Source: Octopus vulgaris
Taxonomy: Eukaryota
DNA length: 64,000 nucleotides
Direction of reading: 5' to 3'
Assembly: GCA_951406725.2 (NCBI GenBank)
Contig: OX597831.1
Location: forward strand, 55,924,001-55,988,000
In this document: positions 2,040 through 57,442 of the stretch, piece by piece
How positions within the stretch are numbered: the stretch's first letter is position 1
Layout of the letters: every line of letters begins with the position of its first letter
The notes under the pieces: generated by a model
Told to the model about the DNA's origin: nothing
The model's database searches: none
What the model saw: the letters and a program-made list of their open reading frames with translations, nothing else
Made by a program: the position numbers and the translations under genes

Positions 2040-3200
2040 CTTTGAGTAGGACTGGTCTAAATTACTCAAAAATGAAAATACCACTGACATCTCTTTTTAA
2101 CAGATATATTTACCGAAATTGCATAAAAATATCTTGAAATACTAAAGAGAAATTTTGTTCAATAAAATTGCCATTGACTTCAACCTCGGCCTCCAGGCGA
2201 CTTCGGAATCTCCTGCAACTCTTCTGGGCGGTCTCTCTGTTTAAGTTCTTGAAGGCTGCCATAATCCTTGCCTTCAATTCATCTTTGATGTTACAAGGAG
2301 TTTTGTTAGTTTTTCGCTCAACTGCGCTCCACACATAATCGAGGGGGTCGCAGTCAGGAGAGTTAGGTGGCCAGAAGTTAGGGCCGATGTGATTGCAGAA
2401 ATAGTCTGACAGCCATGACTGGGTTCTCCTGTTTGTGTGGCATGATGCAGAGTCCTGTTGCCAGACCAGTCCAGCAGCCACCGTCTTGACCCAGGGCAGC
2501 ACTACCTCCTCCAGGCACTTGATGAGGCCGGGTGGGAAGATGAATGTAGGCATAACGTCGCAATCACAAGTGATCACTCCAAACACCATGATGTTGACTG
2601 GATGTTTGATTTTTATAACTCTCGGTACATGTTTTGGGGTCACGACAAACCAACGGTTGTTTTGTGTGTTCACCATCTGAACCTGGCAGAAATTTTTCTC
2701 GTCTGAGAAAAACCAAAGCACGTTTGGTTAGCGGGAATGCTTGAGTTTGTACAAAAATTTCGTAGCGCGGTCTTTCCTCTTGTCCTTCATGGCATGGGAT
2801 TAAGATTGGCCCCTTCTCATCTAGTATGAGAAATACTGAATGTCTTCATGCACTTACCTGCCCGATAAGAAACTCAGACACTACCATGTCCCTGGCGATG
2901 AACCTGATTGACTTGGAGAGATCGTTATCAAGCATGGCCTGGATCTCACCAACAAATTTAGCAGCTTTTCTTATCAGAACGATCAGAGTGAGTTTTCCGA
3001 GCTTCTGTACCGTCGTAATCACCATTAGACTCATCCAACTCTTTCCGAATCCTCTGCACTGTTTGTTTCTATGGATCAAGGTATTTCTTGTATGCTTTTT
3101 CCGGAGATGGATCCTCTACGAAAGTTTTCCATCGAGAAATTACGGCATTATTATTTCAATTTTCATTTTGTATTTTTCATTTACGAATTTCTTTTCTGTA
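2040..3200 (-). mobile_element. Degenerate Tc1/mariner transposon, maT/Bmmar1 (DD37D) family
   Basis: ORF 2110-2721 has FSDEK, WQQDSA and WPPNSPDCDPLDY with 37 residues between the 2nd and 3rd Asp. An HTH-like fragment lies at 2846-3079. Reading frame is disrupted and ends are approximate. Confidence 0.9.
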
Positions 3201-4898: not shown

Positions 4899-6056
4899 AG
4901 TAAATTGGGAGAATGGCTTCATGACTTTCTGAAGGATAGAAGTCAGGGGCCACTTCCATTAACACGCAAATAGTGAGCGGTGTTCCGCAAGGCACTGTTT
5001 TGGGACCACTACTGTTCATAATGGCCCTCTCAGACATGCCCTCAGCCACGCAGAGAGCCACGATCACAACTTATGCAGATGATACAAAAGTTTCACAGGC
5101 AATACAGAACCCTGAAGACACTATGCACCTGCAATGTGAGCTGGACAAAATATACAAGTGGGCTGAAAAGAATAGCATGCAGTTCAATGCTGAAAAGTTT
5201 CAAGCTTTATGCTATCAGCATGCAAAACTAAATGCAATACCCAATAAATACACTGGACCTGGAGGGATTGCAATCCCAGAGGCACAATCAGTGCGAGACC
5301 TGGGTATTTACATGAGTGATGATGCAACCTTTCATGTGCATGTTGCTAAATTGGCAATGAAATGTAGGCGGCTGACCGGATGGATTCTTAGAACCTTTAG
5401 AACAAGAGAACAAGAAACCATGATGGTCCTCTAGGACACTTGTCCTAAGCCACTTTGACTATTGCTCTTAGCTATGGTCACCATACAGTGTCAAGTTAAT
5501 CACAGAACTTGAGACGATCCAACGAAGCTACATGAAGAAGATAGCCTCTGTGCAGCATATAAGCTATTGGGAAAGACTCAAGAGATTGAGACTCTATTCC
5601 TTAGAGCGTAGGCGAGAAAGATATGTCATAATATACATCTGGAAGATCCTAGAAGGACTTGTCCCAAACTTTGGCATCGAGAGTTACACAAATGCCAGAA
5701 CTGGGCGCCACTGCATAGTGCCAAGGACTCCAAATTTGCCATCAAGATGTAGGACAAGATACTGCGATAGCCTGGGCTTCCGAGGCCCACAGCTCTTCAA
5801 TATCCTCCCGAAGAATCTAAGAGACCTGCATGGGGTGGATGCAGATGTCTTTAAAATAAAACTGGATCTTTTCTTGTCAGGTGTCCCAGATGAACCAACT
5901 TCACGGCAGGAGGTGCAGATGAGGGCAGCTGCATCGAACTCTCTCATGCACCAAATGGCAATTGCTAAAAAGCATTCGTGAAGTAAAATCATGTAGCAAC
6001 ACCAAATGGCGGTGCCCCAGCATGGCCACAGCTTGTGAGCTGAAACTAGATAAAAA
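4897..6056 (+). mobile_element. 5'-truncated CR1/L2-group LINE (RT and C-terminal part, inactivated) inside (AT)n
   Basis: [52 protein letters not shown]. Premature stops near 5432-5470. 3' stem-loop tail GGCGGTGCCCCAGCATGGCCACAGCTTGTGAGCTGAAAC. Confidence 0.92.
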
Positions 6057-11778: not shown

Positions 11779-13190
11779 CAAGGTGCATTCCAGAAGTTTT
11801 TAAACTTTTTTAAAGGAGATATTTATTTAACTTCAATGAAGTACTAAACCCTGATCTCTTTCAAAATAAGACCCTCCAACTTCAATGCACTAGTTGCAGC
11901 GCTCCAGTCACTTCATGAAAACCCCATATAAATCTCCCAAAGTGAAGGTGTTCAGGACCCTCGTCACAGCCTCCACCATCGTCAAAACGATCGCCTCTGA
12001 AGTTCTCCTTCAAATTGAGGAACAACAATAGGTCACAAGGAGCAAGGTCTGGACTGTAGGAAGGGAGAGGAACAGTTTTGATATCCATTCTTGTCAAATA
12101 GTTAGTTACCGGAATGGAATTGTGAACTGGTGCATTGTCCTGGTGCAGGTGTTCTGAACTTTTGCGTCGAAATCTCTTCATTTTTTTTTTCATTTTTATT
12201 TTCATCTAGTTTCAGCTCACGAGCAGTGGCCATGCAGGGACACCACCATTCGGTGTTGCTACGTGATTTTACTTCACGAATGCTTTTTAGCAATTGACAT
12301 TTGGTGCATGAGAGAGTTTGATGCAGCTGCCCTCATCTGCACCTCCTGCCGTGAAGTTGGTTCATCTGGGACACTTGACAGGAAGAGATCCAGCTTTATT
12401 TTAAAGACATCCGCATCCACCCCATGCAGGTCTCTCAGGTCCTTCGGGAGGATATTGAAGAGCTGTGGACCTCTGAAGCCCAGGCTATCACAGTATCTTG
12501 CCCTACATCTTGATTGCAAATTTGGAGTCCTTGGCACTATGCAGTGGCGCCCAGTTCTAGTATTTGTGTAGCTCTCGATGCCAAAGTTTGGGACAAGTCC
12601 TTCCAGGATCTTCCAGATGTATATTATGGCATATCTTTCTCGCCTACGCTCTAAGGAATAGAGTCTTAATCTCTTGAGTCTTTCCCAATAGCTTATATGC
12701 TGCATAGCGGTTACCTTCGTGTAGCTTCGTTGGATTGCCTCAAGTTCTGTGATTAATTTGACACTGGCTGGTGACCATAGCTGAGAGCAATAGTCAAAGT
12801 GGCTTAGGACAAGTGTCCTCCAGAGGACCATCATGGTTTCCTGGTCTCTTGTTCAAAAAGCTCTAAGAATCCAAACTAAATTCCTGAACTAAATTCAAGA
12901 CTTCCGCTAAGTACTCATTGTTGACCATACGTCTAGAAAGAATCCAGCGGATATAGATGGTGCCGTTGCTGACGAGGAAGGGTTTTATCATGAACTTCCC
13001 AGTGAACTTTATTTTCCCGGACTCTTCTACTAGAGAAAAAACATGCTAACCTCATAAAATTTATCAATGAAAAGTCTCGAGCATTTCATGAGTTTCTGTA
13101 GCGATTTTTGCCCCAACACAAAACTTTATTGCATTAAGACTTCCCAAATTATTTCACGTCTCGACTGCATTCTGCAAACTAGTCACCTTT
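11779..13190 (-). mobile_element. Degenerate mariner (DD34D) transposon interrupted by a LINE
   Basis: HQDNAPVH...YSPDLAPCD at about 12030-12150. The upstream part (GTIYIRW..MVNNEYLAEVL) resumes after 12876. The end CAAGGTGCATTCCAGAAGTTTT recurs at 48764. Confidence 0.85.
12185..12875 (-). mobile_element. 5'-truncated CR1/L2-group LINE, same family as 4897-6056
   Basis: ORF 12274-12834 is near-identical to the translation of about 5420-5981 and has the same 3' tail. Confidence 0.92.
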
Positions 13191-14195: not shown

Positions 14196-14625
14196 AGAAG
14201 AAATGAAACTCGTCAATAAGACATTTTAACAGAAAATGATGGATATGTATAGTTATTTACTGAACGCTATTAATATTGTTTGAAAAAACGTTATATGATA
14301 TAACATCAGAAGTAGCCTATAGAAAGAGGAGGGATATATTTTTAGTGAATGTTAAATATATATGTATATATATGTATATATGTATATATATATATGTATA
14401 TATATGTATATATATATATATATATATAGCAATAATAATTCTCTAAATGAGATATAGACAGTAACTGCTCCATAACATAAGGGACTAAAGCCATCTGAAT
14501 ATGGCTAGGGACAGGGCAGGGTGGTGTTACTGTTGCATTTAGCCCCAGGCGAACATCAACGTCGCCAGATAGGCTTGACACCATCACGGCGTCCTCTATC
14601 CTGCAAAGGGAGATAATTCCCCGAT

Positions 14626-14698
14626 GAAGCGGAAACCACACACGGACCTAGGTTTCAAGGTGTTTGCCTATTATCAACGTATGGTAGGCACCCGCTTC
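14626..14698 (-). ncRNA. Type I hammerhead, U3-A8 variant, extended stem I
   Basis: Reverse complement of 15182-15254. Confidence 0.82.
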
Positions 14699-15181
14699 CT
14701 CGATGAATCACTCACTCTGCAGGATATTTATATAGATTTTCAAGCAAAATACATTTGCTGATTTCGAAAATCTGTTCGACAGCAATAATAATTCTCTAAA
14801 TGAGATATAGACAGTAACTGCTCCATAACATAAGGGACTAAAGCCATCTGAATATGGCTAGGGACAGGGCAGGGTGGTGGGGGTGTTACCGCTTCATCGG
14901 GGAATTATCTCCCTTTGCAGGATAGAGGACGCCGTGATGGTGTCAAGCCTATCTGGCGACGTTGATGTTCGCCTGGGGCTAAACACAACAGTAACACCCC
15001 CACCACCCTGCCCTGTCCCTAGCCATATTCAGATGGCTTTAGTCCCTTATGTTATGGAGCAGTTACTGTCTATATCTCATTTAGAGAATTATTATTGCTG
15101 TCGAACAGATTTTCGAAATCAGCAAATGTATTTTGCTTGAAAATCTATATAAATATCCTGCAGAGTTAGTGGTTCGTCGAG

Positions 15182-15254
15182 GAAGCGGGTGCCTACCATA
15201 CGTTGATAATAGGCAAACACCTTGAAACCTAGGTCCGTGTGTGGTTTCCGCTTC
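15182..15254 (+). ncRNA. Type I hammerhead, U3-A8 variant, extended stem I
   Basis: GAAGCGG..CATACG-TTGATAA-tAGG caaaca CCTt-GAA-ACCTAGGT-C-CGTGTG..CCGCTTC. Predicted cleavage after 15235 (GUC). Confidence 0.82.
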
Positions 15255-15409
15255 ATCGGGGAATTATCTCTCTTTGCAGGATAGAGGACGCCGTGATGGT
15301 GTCAAGCCTATCTGGCGACGTTGATGTTCGCCTGGGGCTAAATGCAACAGTAACACCACCCTGCCCTGTCCCTAGCCATATTCAGATGGCTTTAGTCCCT
15401 TATGCAGTC

Positions 15410-15486
<77 letters not shown>

Positions 15487-15648
15487 TATACATAGGTATA
15501 CATACATATGTGTGTATGTATAGATGTATGTATATATGCATGTATATGTATGTACATGTGTATATATATGTATATATATGTATGTACATGTTTATATATG
15601 TAAATATATGTATATATGTAAGTATATGTATATCTATGTATATATGTT

Positions 15649-15743
<95 letters not shown>

Positions 15744-31669: not shown

Positions 31670-32850
31670 AGGGTCATATAGAAGGTAATATTTCGGCATC
31701 GTTCTAAAACTTTCCTCAAATCTTTAAATGACTACATGGCCAAAATTAAGCAATCGCCTAATCTACATATCTTCGCCGACTAAATAAAGAAGATTTATGA
31801 AACATGCATCTCCACATACGCAAGGCTTCTCACAAACATAAATCACCAAGACACACAAGAAAACTTGCAACTCCACATTCAATGATAAATTCAGACGCGA
31901 AGGAGCTAGCTATCCGCCTTAACATAGAAGGTCGTGTAGACCGCCTTACCACGCGACCTCCGCACATTACACTTAAGGACCACATGCCTAAATTCCTCTA
32001 CAACCCTAAATGCAGGCTGATCAACCCCTCTAAAAGTGATATAGGTATTGTTAGAAAGCGCATTCTTGATACCTGTTTCTTTATTACCCACAAGGGGCTA
32101 AACATAGAGGGAACAAACAAGGACAGACATAGGTATTAAGTCGATTACATCGACCCCAGTGCGTAACTGGTACTTAATTTATCGACCCCGAAAGGATGCA
32201 AAGGCAAAGTCGACCTCGGCGGAATTTGAACTCACAACGTAACGGCAGACGAAATACGGCTATCATTTCGCCCGGCGTGCTAACGTTTCTGCCAGCTCGC
32301 CGCATTCTTGATACCATCAACTCTGACATTAGAAGGGCCTCAGGGTTGATTCAATGGGATTCCAGCGCAGCCCTGATCGACTGGTTTCACAGTATCGAGA
32401 ATAAATCAGCCTGCAGTTTAATGCGTTTGACATCGTAGACTTTTACCCTTCTGTATCGAAAACCCTCCTCTTGAAGGCTCTAAATCTTTCTAAGTAATTC
32501 ATTAGCACGAGTGATCTCGATGTCAGAATCATCACGAACGTCAGAAAGTCAATCTTGGTTCAGGTCGATACACTGTCTGAGTGAAGGAAGCAGTCGATTT
32601 ACTGTTCGACGTTTCTATGAGGTGCTACGACGGGACTGAGATCGCCGAACTCGTCGGGTTATTCATCTTGGATACTCTCTAGAAATGCACGCATCCACAT
32701 TGGTTGGCCCTCTATAGGGACGATGGCCTGGCAAATACAAAGCCATATGAGCTGTCACGCCATGAACAAGTTCAGGAAGGACGTGATAAAAATATTCAAG
32801 GAATTCGGCCTGTCTATAACAGTTACCATCAATCTGACCACGGTCGACCT
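31670..32850 (+). pseudogene. Penelope-like element reverse transcriptase fossil (probably Naiad-type)
   Basis: ITLKDH..KF..NPKCRLINPSKSDIG..KRILDTIN, QW..ALIDWF, FDIVDFYPSV, FDVSMRCYDGTEIAELVGLFIL, LYRDDGLA, KIFKEFGLSIT. Stops and frameshifts present. Confidence 0.85.
32074..32303 (-). mobile_element. SINE family B inserted in the PLE RT, with TSD
   Basis: CGCATTCTTGATACC at 32059-32073 and 32301-32315. Confidence 0.92.
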
Positions 32851-44487: not shown

Positions 44488-45011
44488 GGCGGTGGGCTGA
44501 CAGAATAGTTACCACGTCTGAGAAAATGCTTAGCAACAATTCTTTCAGATCTTTACGCTTTGTGTTCAAATATCGCCGAGATCAACTTTGCCTTTCATCC
44601 TTTCGAGGCCGATAAAATAAAGTACCAATCAAGTATTTGTGTCCCTCATTATTCCTCAACGAGCTAATGATATTGTCTTGTAGTAATGTTATGCCATCAG
44701 AGTTTATCTTCGGGTCTCTCTTCATAATTAACACTGCACAGTTACTTATTCCAAACTGCATTGTAGAATCCTATTGTTATTAGGCAGAGGAAGTACAGAC
44801 ACGTCAATAGCCCGGACTAAATGGCTAACAACATTTAGTTACATCTCATTACGTTCTGATATCAAATATCATCGAGGATGACTTTGCCTCTCATTTTAGA
44901 TTCGATAAAATATATTGCTAGCTATGTACGTGGTTGATTAAATTGATTACATCCTTACTCCCAACAGTTGTGGTCTCATTCTAATGTAAAATCATCATTA
45001 TTACATTCCAG

Positions 45012-46319
45012 CTCAGCGTAACGAAAGCATACCAGAGTCTTCTACAAAGAAACTAACATCAAAAGAAAGTATCAAAACTTCAAAACCCAGGAAGAAATCT
45101 TCACGCCTTTTCACCTCAAAAGAGTTTACATCAACGAGAAATGGACACAGTCGGTCAAATCTTTCTTCGACTCAAGACAACACTCATATAACGCTTCGGA
45201 TAGAGAGAATAAAAAGAGCAGCAATGGTAACAGCATCAAGAAATGCAGCTACGGCGCCAAATGCAACAGTATCAAATACAACAGCGTCAGGATCTACAAC
45301 AACGGCATCAAATACAACAGCGTCAGGAAATACAGCAACAAAATTACCAAAAACCACTGTGCCAATAACGACAATCAATATGAAATCACTTATTTCACTT
45401 CTTGCAAACTATACGGTTACCGAACAATACAATAACGCAACCATCTCGGATAACATATATGATTCGCCAAAGCATAATGACACGATTACTTTTGCAACTA
45501 GTCAGGATAATGAAACGATCACTTTTGCAACTCGTCAGGAAAGTATAGAATCTACACCGGAAACAACATTGGCATCCAGCTCTTTCACTTCAGCATCAGA
45601 TTTATCAACAGCAAAAGATACTGGTGATATGTTTCGCACAGTATCCGTATCAGCTGAACAGAATTGGAAAACGCACAGGCCTCGTCTGCTGCCGGTAATA
45701 GTGACAGAACCTTTAACATCAGAGAATCTAATTAATACGACTTCGCGTTGGACTGTATCAAAGGATTTACCCATAAATAATAGTTCGAGTGAAGTTATAT
45801 CAAGCGCACTTCCAAGGAATATCACAAAGAATTCTTTGAATGAAACAAAATCCGCTGACGTATTTATTACATCATCCACTCTCGTAGATTCAGTCATAAC
45901 ATCACAAGCTACATCTCTCAACATAAACTGGACAGCCCACCCTTCCAGATTATCGTTGGCAATAGAGACAGAAGCTGCAACGCCAGAGAATTTAATCGAT
46001 ACAACTTTAAATGAAGCTTTATCAAAGGATTTACTCCGAAATAATTCGTCAATAAGAGATACATCAAATACTTTATTGGGAAATGTTAGTGAGACCTTTA
46101 CACAAACAATAACCACAACATTGAATCAATTCCACGATAAATTACAAGCAGAAAGTAGTTCCACTACGACAAAATATTTATTCAGAAATATTCCTACTCG
46201 CACCGAACCTCCGAAGGTCTCTATACATAAAACAACCAACGATATAAACAATATTAGTAGTACACTTGCACCGACTCGTAACTTTTTCTTGACGTATTCC
46301 GGCAAGGCAGCCATACCAG
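45012..46319 (+). CDS. Mucin-like membrane protein, coding exon 3 (Ser/Thr-rich stalk)
   Basis: 1308-nt open, non-microsatellite frame. TTCCAG acceptor and G|GTTAGT donor, phase 1-1. Many N-x-S/T sequons and an RIKR furin-like site. Confidence 0.88.
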
Positions 46320-46465
46320 GTTAGTCCATTGTTATTTGCATTTCTAAAATTAAACGAAGAAGAAAACCACAGATTCCTGACCCCCCTCTTATCTTAAGAT
46401 ACACTCTGCTTTAATCTTATTAAAGCTTGCAGAATCATTACCGCGTCGAACAAATTGCCTAGCAG

Positions 46466-55024: not shown

Positions 55025-56183
55025 TGACAGTTGATCGAATTTAGACTAGTGGACAGTTGATCGAATTTTAGCAAGTGGACAGTTGATCGAATTTACACCA
55101 GTGGACAATTGATCGAATTTGCACATGTAAACAGTTGATCAAGTTTACACCGGTGGACAGTTGATCGAATTTTCGCTAGTGGGCAATTGATTGAAATGCA
55201 AAAGTAGACAGTAGATCGAATTTACACAATTGCACAGTTGATCGAATTTACACCAGTGGACAATTGATCGAATTTTCGCTAGTGGACAGTTGATCGAATT
55301 TGCACAAGAAGACAATTGATCGAATTTTCCCTAGTGGACAATTGATCGAATTTACACCAGTGGGCAGTTGATAGAATTTGCGCTAGTTGACAGTTGATCG
55401 AATTTACACCAGTGGACAGTTGAACGAATGTTTGCTAGTGGACAGTTGATCGAATTTGCACAAGTAGACAGTTGAACGAATTTAGACCAGTAGACATTCA
55501 ATCGAATTTGTGCTAGTGGATACTAGATCGAATTTTCGCTAGTGGACAGTTAATCGAATTTACACAAGTAGACAGTTGAACGAATTTAGACTAGTGGACA
55601 GTCTATCGAATTTTCCCTAGTTGACAATTGATCGAAATACACAATTAGACAGTTGATCAAATTTACACCTGTGGACAGTTGATCGAATTTGCACCATTGG
55701 ATAGTTGATCGACGTTAGACCAGTGGACAGTTGATCGAATTTGCGCTAGCGGACAGTTAATCAAATTTCCACCAGTGGGCAGTTGATAGAATTTGAAAAA
55801 GTAGACAGTTGATCGAATTTACGCTATTAGTGGATCGACGTTAGACCAGTGGACAGTTGATCAAATTTTTGCTAGTGGACAGCTGACCGAATTTACACCA
55901 GCGGACGGTTGATCGAATTTTCGCTACTGCACAGTGGATCGAATTTGCACAAGAAGATAATTGATCAAACTTTCGCTATTGGACTGTTGATCGAATTTAC
56001 ACCAGAGTGCAGTTGATAGAATTTGCGCTAATGGACAGTTGATCGAATTTACACCAGTGGCCAGTTGAACGAATGTTTGCTAGTGGACAGTTGATCGAAT
56101 TTGCATAAGTAGACAGTTGAACGAATTTAGACCAGTGGAAGTCAATCGAATTTTCGCTAGTGGATAGTTGATCGAATTTAGAC
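55025..56183. repeat. Minisatellite, 22-23 bp unit, about 50 copies
   Basis: Consensus GTGGACAGTTGATCGAATTT plus a variable ACACCA/TCGCTA/GCACAA/AGACCA segment. Confidence 0.95.
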
Positions 56184-57442
56184 TTACCACACAGCCACAA
56201 ACTCCACACATCTTCTCAATAGAAAAGTTGCAGTAATACAACGACGATGATAAAATAAGATTTAAATCAGTAAAAACAATCACTACACATTTAAATGTAA
56301 ACAAACCACAAATACACAAAAGCCACTGACACGTACATCCGCAAACCATATACACGCATACATACACACTTACAAACCACAAACACACACACGTCTGAAT
56401 TAAATATGGACGCCAAAAAAAACAACAAAGCAGTAACGTCGACAAAACTGCAATACACAGAGAGAGGGAGAGGCTTGACAACAAATAAATGAACATAAAC
56501 ACATAAACAACATAAGCACAACAACATAAACACAAGAAAAAATCAGTTGGAGATTGGCAATAAACTATTCAACAGCAATAAAGAGGTAAATTAAACCAGT
56601 GCGTGTGTTTTTATTTTATTGGCCAAATGACCGTCCTAAAATTCAACTATATCATTTATAACACGCTTACATATAAAACATCTTGAAAAGCAAATGCATG
56701 ATCCCCTGTTTGGCAAGGTAAAAGGGTTGAATTTCTCTGGGTCAATTGTAGAATATACGAATATTGGAATGTAGTGATACTGAGATACTGAAATACAAGA
56801 TAAACTGAAAAGTAAACAGGATTTTTTGAAGTTGATGGGGGTAAAATCATGAAGCGGGTTAAGGAGCACAGTAGAAAAAGGGTTAGTGTTTGATCTGTGT
56901 GACCTTTGAAGAAAATAAGAAAAGTAAGGTAAGGTAGAAATTATAGAACTTACGATAAGAGTAAAAATTAGATGTTAGATTTTTAAAAAGAAACATGCGG
57001 TTTGAGAAAATTGTCTTAAATACAGAGTGTATCAATGTGGAGAGAAAAAAATGAAATAGAGAAAAATAAACAATGGGAAACAAATTCAAAGAGAAAAAAT
57101 TCCATCCTATGAGCTGGAAGTTTTAGAAATCTTGTGGGAAAATGAAAGAATCCAGAAAACGAAGTAATAATGGAACATTCTATTGCCGGCGCAGAAATTC
57201 CGCACAGTAGACACAAATATAAAAGTAGTACAAGAATGTAATGCATCGTTAATGACTACCAAACTTTGAATTATTTTAACCCTTTTACTTGGTTAAAACA
57301 TTTTCGTAAATTTGTCCTAAAAATGTCCCTGCTTGTTTTCAGGTTTTTAATCTGCTCTTGTTTCAAACATTCTGAAAATATAAACCTTTTCTTTTATATA
57401 TCCCAAGTAACACTGACGGTTGAAGAAAATTGGGAATGTATA

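Follow-up and report, generated by a model that had tools for sequence, protein, structure and literature searches.

The inverted element at 14428-15404 of the window, the 64,000-nt stretch of Octopus vulgaris DNA that was analyzed, is very probably a non-autonomous Penelope-like element (PLE) of the non-LTR retrozyme kind, judging from its sequence. Taken as a whole, the observations are probably best explained by a retrozyme-like unit that was mobilized by a PLE and inserted by twin priming. A young, non-autonomous element moved by a PLE had already been proposed in a first-pass annotation, and this proposal was borne out by the dispersal of the family, the (AT)n target, a two-site tail, truncated head-to-head arms, and matching families with RT and GIY-YIG domains. 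The sequence features of retrozymes were found at the family level, with the circle and the cleavage being predicted for the present element.

The element contains two inverted stretches of 414 nt (14476-14889 and 14991-15404) that differ by 4 substitutions and are separated by 101 nt; its two arms are about 99% alike, and direct repeats within it are spaced by 353 and 359 nt (Table 1). On a ruler set to the 359-nt unit, the arms measure 1.33 units (left, minus strand) and 1.47 units (right, plus strand), close to the 1.3 and 1.45 copies estimated before. The initial description of arms of about 410 bp around a spacer of about 100 bp held for the lengths, but the spacer proved to be the 5' part of the right arm; similarly, the 353-bp unit is present at the locus, but the unit of the family is about 359 nt and 353 nt is the local short variant. 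The 5' ends of the arms meet at the junction and the 3' ends face outward. The right arm stops 4 nt short of the proximal start site and is followed by 8 extra nucleotides, CAGTCATG. As first noticed, a 6-bp length variant is mirrored, with a short outer unit and a long inner partial unit in both arms. The insertion within (AT)n was evident from tracts on both sides, which mask any target-site duplication (for retrozymes, >4 bp when present). Two of the four sites at which the arms differ carry alleles common elsewhere in the family; the four differences could mean two RNA templates. The element is non-coding, with a longest stop-free frame of 92 aa, while the unit has a GC content of 44% (0.445) and a longest ATG frame of 65 aa in the dimer. 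As a circle, the 353-nt unit has a predicted folding energy of -114.5 kcal/mol (z = -5.0), a stability that 0/100 shuffles reached and that chance does not explain. There are two hammerheads in all, one per strand and no same-strand pair, so that the locus alone could not release a monomer.

Table 1. Features of the inverted element and its flanks, in window positions
Feature	Position	Strand	Remark
Left (AT)n target remnant	14356..14427	none	(AT)n tract 14356-14428
Left arm, 1.33 units	14428..14889	minus	3' end = distal start site (…TTATTATTGCT|ATAT)
44-nt 'tail', putative proximal-to-distal start site	14428..14471	minus	on the left arm's outer end only
Full 353-nt unit, short variant	14428..14780	minus	
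Putative type I hammerhead, mirror copy	14639..14683	minus	predicted cut between 14645 and 14644
TATA-like box + Inr-like site, mirror copy (putative promoter)	14702..14734	minus	
Inner partial unit, long variant	14781..14889	minus	holds the left arm's 5' truncation point
Head-to-head junction	14885..14889	none	imperfect overlap <=5 nt
Right arm, 1.47 units	14885..15404	plus	3' end near proximal start site
'Spacer' = single-copy 5' part of right arm	14890..14990	plus	
Putative promoter	15146..15178	plus	TATA-like box 15146-15153, Inr-like site 15173-15178
Putative type I hammerhead	15197..15241	plus	cut predicted after C15235
Short (6-bp-deleted) variant	15345..15366	plus	mirror 14514-14535 minus
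Right (AT)n-rich target remnant	15413..15739	none	

The plus-strand hammerhead has a helix I of 6 bp (15197-15202/15236-15241), the core UUGAUAA (15203-15209), a helix II of 3 bp closed by U.U (15211-15222), GAAA (15224-15227), and a palindromic helix III, ACCUAGGU (15227-15234). Its position and predicted cut after 15235 agree with the first-pass annotation, the core being the UUGAUAA variant. Rfam gave no hammerhead in the whole window at the gathering score, nor at the locus at E<=10. Among 144 family-A motifs, the core read UUGAUAA in 90 and UUGAUGA in 46. Sister families (60-68% identity) keep the hammerhead fold with changed letters, namely C3-G8 or U3-A8, altered pairs in helices I and II, and the helix III palindromes ACUGCAGU, ACUCGAGU, and ACGCGU. 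Applied to 11 units from several families, RNAalifold found helix II and two downstream stems but placed helices I and III out of register; these two helices were therefore counted by anchors. Helix I was paired at 6/6 positions in 9 of 11 sequences of differing sequence, N3-N8 covaried between CG and UA, and 6 of the 11 had a perfectly palindromic helix III. This covariation among sister families supports a putative variant type I hammerhead with a U3-A8 core and a palindromic helix III in each arm; the U3-A8 core is a described variant of PLE hammerheads (PMC4209133). The helix III dimer reached -11.4 kcal/mol as a duplex, and the hammerhead fold (-4.3) was not the monomer minimum (-12.0 kcal/mol). 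The palindromic 2-bp helix III suggests, in these models, cleavage as a dimer (cf. PMC4209133), and the motif may be expected to self-cleave. Upstream of it, a TATA-like box and an Inr-like site recur with equal spacing in five families or subfamilies (A, A2, B, C, and D) and would form a promoter; a similar TATA and Inr arrangement has been described for pLTRs (PMC3846280).

The unit is also one of a superfamily of hammerhead units, each ~350 nt long, that are 60-72% alike where aligned and have two downstream stems with compensatory changes and a tail motif in common. Members are family B (L030:312-592), family C (L158-L186), family D (L030:658-1491 and L097), whose core reads CCGAUGA, and a unit at L095.

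The exact hammerhead 20-mer occurred 235 times in the 2.8-Gb genome (control, 0). The first 100 of these 235 matches made up 62 loci, among which there was no +/- (tail-to-tail) pair, and the family is estimated to comprise roughly 145 loci as a lower bound. A set of 82 loci was mapped, of which the best-score list supplied 40 and the pattern list 42; 54 are close to the window type and 28 belong to a subfamily about 10% away. Two arms were present in 52 loci, all head-to-head, and 30 loci were one-armed; (AT)3 or (TA)3 lay within 16 nt of 122/134 outer 3' ends.

Of these 134 ends, placed on the unit ruler, 51 fell at 315, 43 at 359, and 9 at 355, which gives two clusters, proximal and distal, 40-44 nt apart. 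On the present analysis, this interval is the Penelope 'tail' and would mark two RT start sites. One proximal and one distal end were paired in 43/44 two-armed loci with both ends assignable (binomial p = 2.6e-12; the test excludes 8 two-armed loci with an off-site end), that is, 22/23 in the best-score set and 21/21 in the pattern-list set. One-armed loci had 16 proximal, 12 distal, and 2 other ends; since they use both sites about equally, independent choice predicts mixed pairs in only about half of the two-armed loci. In sister family B, the loci of which were picked for one distal end, 11/12 two-armed loci were distal+proximal and none was distal+distal, and all 3 autonomous elements with both ends captured were proximal+distal. 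A tail at one end is already known qualitatively, and the near-strict count (43/44) is added here; a published count of this pairing was not found in a literature search in which subscription journals were thinly covered. The pairing points to a coupling of the two start sites. No start-site difference between the strands was seen in vitro (PMC11167929), a result that does not by itself account for the one-of-each rule.

On the 5' side, there was no systematic difference in reach between the arms of a locus. The tailed arm reached further 5' in 15/38 loci and the tail-less arm in 23/38 (p = 0.26), and arm lengths at two-armed loci showed no significant correlation. In the 23 loci, the window locus included, neither arm contains the other: in the window, the tail is on the left arm alone and the right arm alone extends about 100 nt further 5', which speaks against the first-pass claim that one arm was copied from the other. 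Such copying by self-priming fold-back has been proposed for PLEs (PMC3846280), and the mirrored 6-bp variant, the 99% likeness of the arms, and three private substitutions common to both arms at one locus (L240) speak for it. However, simple copying needs one arm to lie inside the other and therefore fails in 23/38 loci, where the tail is on the other arm alone, and fold-back is unlikely here; a hybrid of fold-back and a second priming event is an alternative. The mirrored variant was seen only at the window locus among the 82 mapped loci, but a search located the short variant at 7 other genomic places, so that the mirror is accounted for no less well by a template in which a long unit was already followed by a short one. 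Its simplest reading would be such a template copied twice, with gene conversion between the arms as an alternative. Palindromes in AT repeats assemble poorly (PMC8557442), which would favor an assembly artefact; given head-to-head arms in 52/82 loci with varied junctions and a fixed end rule, and window arms that differ in both sequence and ends, this origin of the inversion is very unlikely, close to negligible. With strict trimming, 13/47 junctions overlapped by 1-4 nt, 6 were flush, and 28 had a gap, a count that is inflated by the trimming; microhomology comes out too high in blastn overlaps and too low after strict trimming, and with such mixed counts joining by microhomology is not established.

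With regard to the template, arms mostly spanned 0.5-2 units, with a maximum of 3.15, and ran through hammerhead sites, and the 5' ends were spread over the unit with 1/140 within 4 nt of the cut site. Long arms and scattered 5' ends imply a template longer than one unit, or a circle. The genome search for tandem copies suggested at first pass was fruitful, as two hammerheads lay on one arm in 19/82 loci, the window locus not being one of them. A monomeric circular RNA copied for more than one round (the model of PMC7229834) would bear on the template alone and can go together with twin priming. It accords with the arm lengths, the lack of 5' ends enriched at the cut site, the hammerhead pairs, the stable circular fold, and six locus-private variants common to all units of their locus. 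An uncut multimer, however, explains the lengths equally well, hammerhead cleavage was dispensable for insertion in vitro (PMC11167929), and the outer and inner units in the window differ by 6 bp alike on both arms, unlike copies of a monomer circle. In the variant census of the 82 loci, the 6 private variants common to all units stood beside 1 index-specific, 3 mixed, and 100 single-copy cases, as well as 3 variants common to both arms where a single unit index was covered. At 1.2-1.8%, whether inside one arm, from arm to arm, or from locus to locus, divergence was too noisy to choose a template model, and overall values of 1.4-1.8% did not tell circle from multimer. The family-wide evidence on circle versus multimer is mixed, and we regard the circle as possible at well under an even chance.

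Candidate partners were found in young families encoding proteins of 781 aa and 775 aa with RT and GIY-YIG domains; in Pfam, both have RVT_1 (just under the cut-off) followed by a C-terminal GIY-YIG. Both also have the CX2-5CxxC linker motif (as defined in PMC8557442), which fits Neptune or Nematis at the level of the motif. Copies of the two families terminate at (AT)n, at either of two sites that lie 32-38 nt from each other, and occur in tandem or as head-to-head pairs. The hammerhead of the 781-aa family has a U3-A8 core, as does the window family, and in the 775-aa family 110/111 scored matches were listed at 100% over 368 aa. In both (L246-L252 and L144-L148), the RT frame is preceded by another frame, and the two overlap at a T run in the manner expected of a frameshift; a frameshifted ORF1 has been noted in PLEs (PMC8557442). 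The survey covered 50 GIY-YIG loci of 6136 first-look candidates. Family-A units scored no better than shuffles against the terminal regions of five autonomous families (two young and three minor), and 1 of 15 unit-by-family comparisons stood out (family C against the 775-aa family, 1/200 shuffles). Terminal homology was thus not found with these five families, and the partner is a candidate proposed from shared marks. A search by canonical core and the same helix III gave 6 matches, none with a PLE frame, and an ORF beside a family-B unit proved to be an ORF1-like gene without RT. The window also has, at 32300-32850 (+), a degenerate RT-like fragment that carries a YRDDG motif and may derive from an old PLE; it had no Pfam match and no tblastn match to the two young PLE families.

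The unit might instead be no more than the terminal repeat (pLTR) of a coding PLE, left in truncated form; in favor of this, short 3' stumps that bear these marks are numerous for coding PLEs (PMC8557442). This reading is distinctly improbable: the unit end joins its own start in tandem, PLE protein fragments occurred within the fetched flanks in 3/82 family-A, 0/30 family-B, and 0/29 family-C loci and none ran into the unit, and the sole A-like piece beside an RT gene (downstream of it, at L137), considered as a linked end, was a separate family-C insertion.

For a PLE-mobilized unit, the following course of events is proposed. The ~359-nt unit, which has conserved hairpins and a two-site tail besides its putative promoter and dimer-type hammerhead, would give rise, at a tandem source locus, to an RNA more than one unit long, which could be a circle or an uncut multimer. 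Both strands of the self-complementary (AT)n would be cut by a PLE RT-endonuclease that is probably dimeric and of a Neptune/Nematis-type family, and each cut end would serve as primer for a separate cDNA, with one cDNA beginning at the proximal start site and the other at the distal start site. The two cDNAs would stop at unrelated points and then be joined head-to-head, a single extended cDNA would leave a one-armed copy, and the window element would be a twin-primed insertion. This two-primer model of the mirrored insertion is somewhat favored, whereas the chance that both primers worked on one RNA falls just short of even. Cleavage and extension of both strands by a PLE protein have been reported in vitro, with the tail defined by two internal start sites; a PLE dimer has been predicted (PMC11167929 for both).

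A second retroelement was found beside hammerheads of the superfamily. Units of ~1.6-2 kb with one ~460-aa ORF and an AATAAA tail are inserted in families B and C and further relatives; the ORF gave zf-CCHC below the cut-off, and its neighbors in ESM Atlas fall in CCHC and ZCCHC3-like clusters. In the loci read, this ORF1-only unit had no RT next to it; the LINE-like element may be 'Tx1-like'. A hammerhead-core pattern followed 53/85 exact tail 20-mers at 14-44 nt downstream, against a chance rate estimated at 1-2%, a reversed-pattern control not being fair here. Convincing 14-22-nt flanking duplications (one mismatch allowed) were found in 9/12 loci read, starting at or near the putative start site. 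The insertions adjoin the ribozyme on its 5' side in several families that are only 60-70% alike; the family-A hammerhead was present at 0/53 tail sites. No report of LINE-like targeting of hammerhead elements was found among the papers listed in the literature search, and a preference for sites immediately upstream of hammerheads, if it holds, would be a novel type of targeting. The loci with this unit are L037:7435-9081, L085, L086, L093, L094, L095, L096, L097, L101, and L181. A second ORF1-only subfamily (L087, L088, L089, L092, and L105) forms head-to-tail arrays with a ~1.8-kb period in which many 457-aa frames are intact and an ORF1 type of 36% identity is interspersed; no RT or hammerhead unit was seen between them. 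At L037:1688-2590 (-), an uninterrupted 300-aa frame encodes a caspase domain (Peptidase_C14, E = 1.5e-60).

Elsewhere in the window, LINE RT fragments are located at 4940-5981 (+) and 12274-12852 (-) (RVT_1, E = 6.7e-12 for 4940-5431), a DDE_3-like transposase fragment below the cut-off at 2110-2727 (-), a 444-aa Ser/Thr-rich open frame, possibly a mucin-like exon, at 44990-46324 (+), and a minisatellite with a 26-bp period and ~45 copies at 55026-56184.

The joint reading that the two active sites of a PLE dimer start on one RNA, each at its own fixed site, and that the hammerhead superfamily is targeted by the LINE-like element is put forward tentatively, its chance being somewhat below even. 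If the dimer part is true, every mirrored PLE insertion would be a twin-primed product. If the LINE part is true, a retroelement would recognize the promoters of ribozyme elements, not one sequence, and would gain a promoter upstream and a ribozyme and PLE tail downstream. The making of inverted, tailed PLE insertions has been described as undefined (PMC8557442), and PLE mobilization of retrozymes has so far been argued from homology and co-occurrence. With a short unit of which there are many young copies, both questions can be put as counts (43/44 end pairs and 23/38 fold-back failures). The genome also holds intact candidate enzymes, and the end-rule and fold-back counts are testable in the existing in vitro PLE system.

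Compared with metazoan non-LTR retrozymes as described in PMC7229834, the octopus unit is alike in being a non-coding repeat within 150-450 bp with GC <50%, a type I hammerhead, tandem copies, and a stable circular fold. Mussel retrozyme units measure 350-390 bp (Cervera and de la Pena 2020, PMC7229834), and an axolotl retrozyme family has U.U at the base of helix II (PMC7229834), as has the octopus unit. It differs by its U3-A8 or U3-G8 core, arms mostly of 0.5-2 units, and mostly head-to-head insertions, and its circles and cleavage are predicted. In a preprint, Li et al. (bioRxiv 10.64898/2026.07.22.740005) argued that animal retrozymes are non-autonomous PLE sequences, and dependence of the unit on PLEs is common to both studies. 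Their argument, as set out there, is based on co-occurrence and pLTR homology in frogs, with tandems formed by local amplification; in octopus, the basis is insertion footprints, pLTR homology was not found, and tandems seem to arrive with the insertion. By their definition of 'active', two consecutive hammerhead units, the window locus falls outside.

PLE insertions as described in PMC8557442, PMC3846280, and PMC11167929 also have partial tandems, head-to-head inversion, a (TA)n target, a 30-40-bp tail 'often only at one end', and two RT start sites, whereas the octopus family adds a near-strict end rule (43/44) and arms of which neither contains the other. Non-autonomous Chlamys elements such as MRC1 (PMC8557442) are likewise non-coding, head-to-tail, and PLE-mobilized, but have 3' sequence in common with their autonomous partners and, as far as that description goes, lack canonical hammerheads. 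The hammerheads of Schistosoma Cercyon PLEs (PMC4209133) are alike in U3-A8 core covariation, a palindromic helix III, and opposite-strand pairs 100-700 bp apart; unlike them, the octopus hammerhead has a helix I of 6 bp and a short helix II and resides in a self-contained tandem unit.
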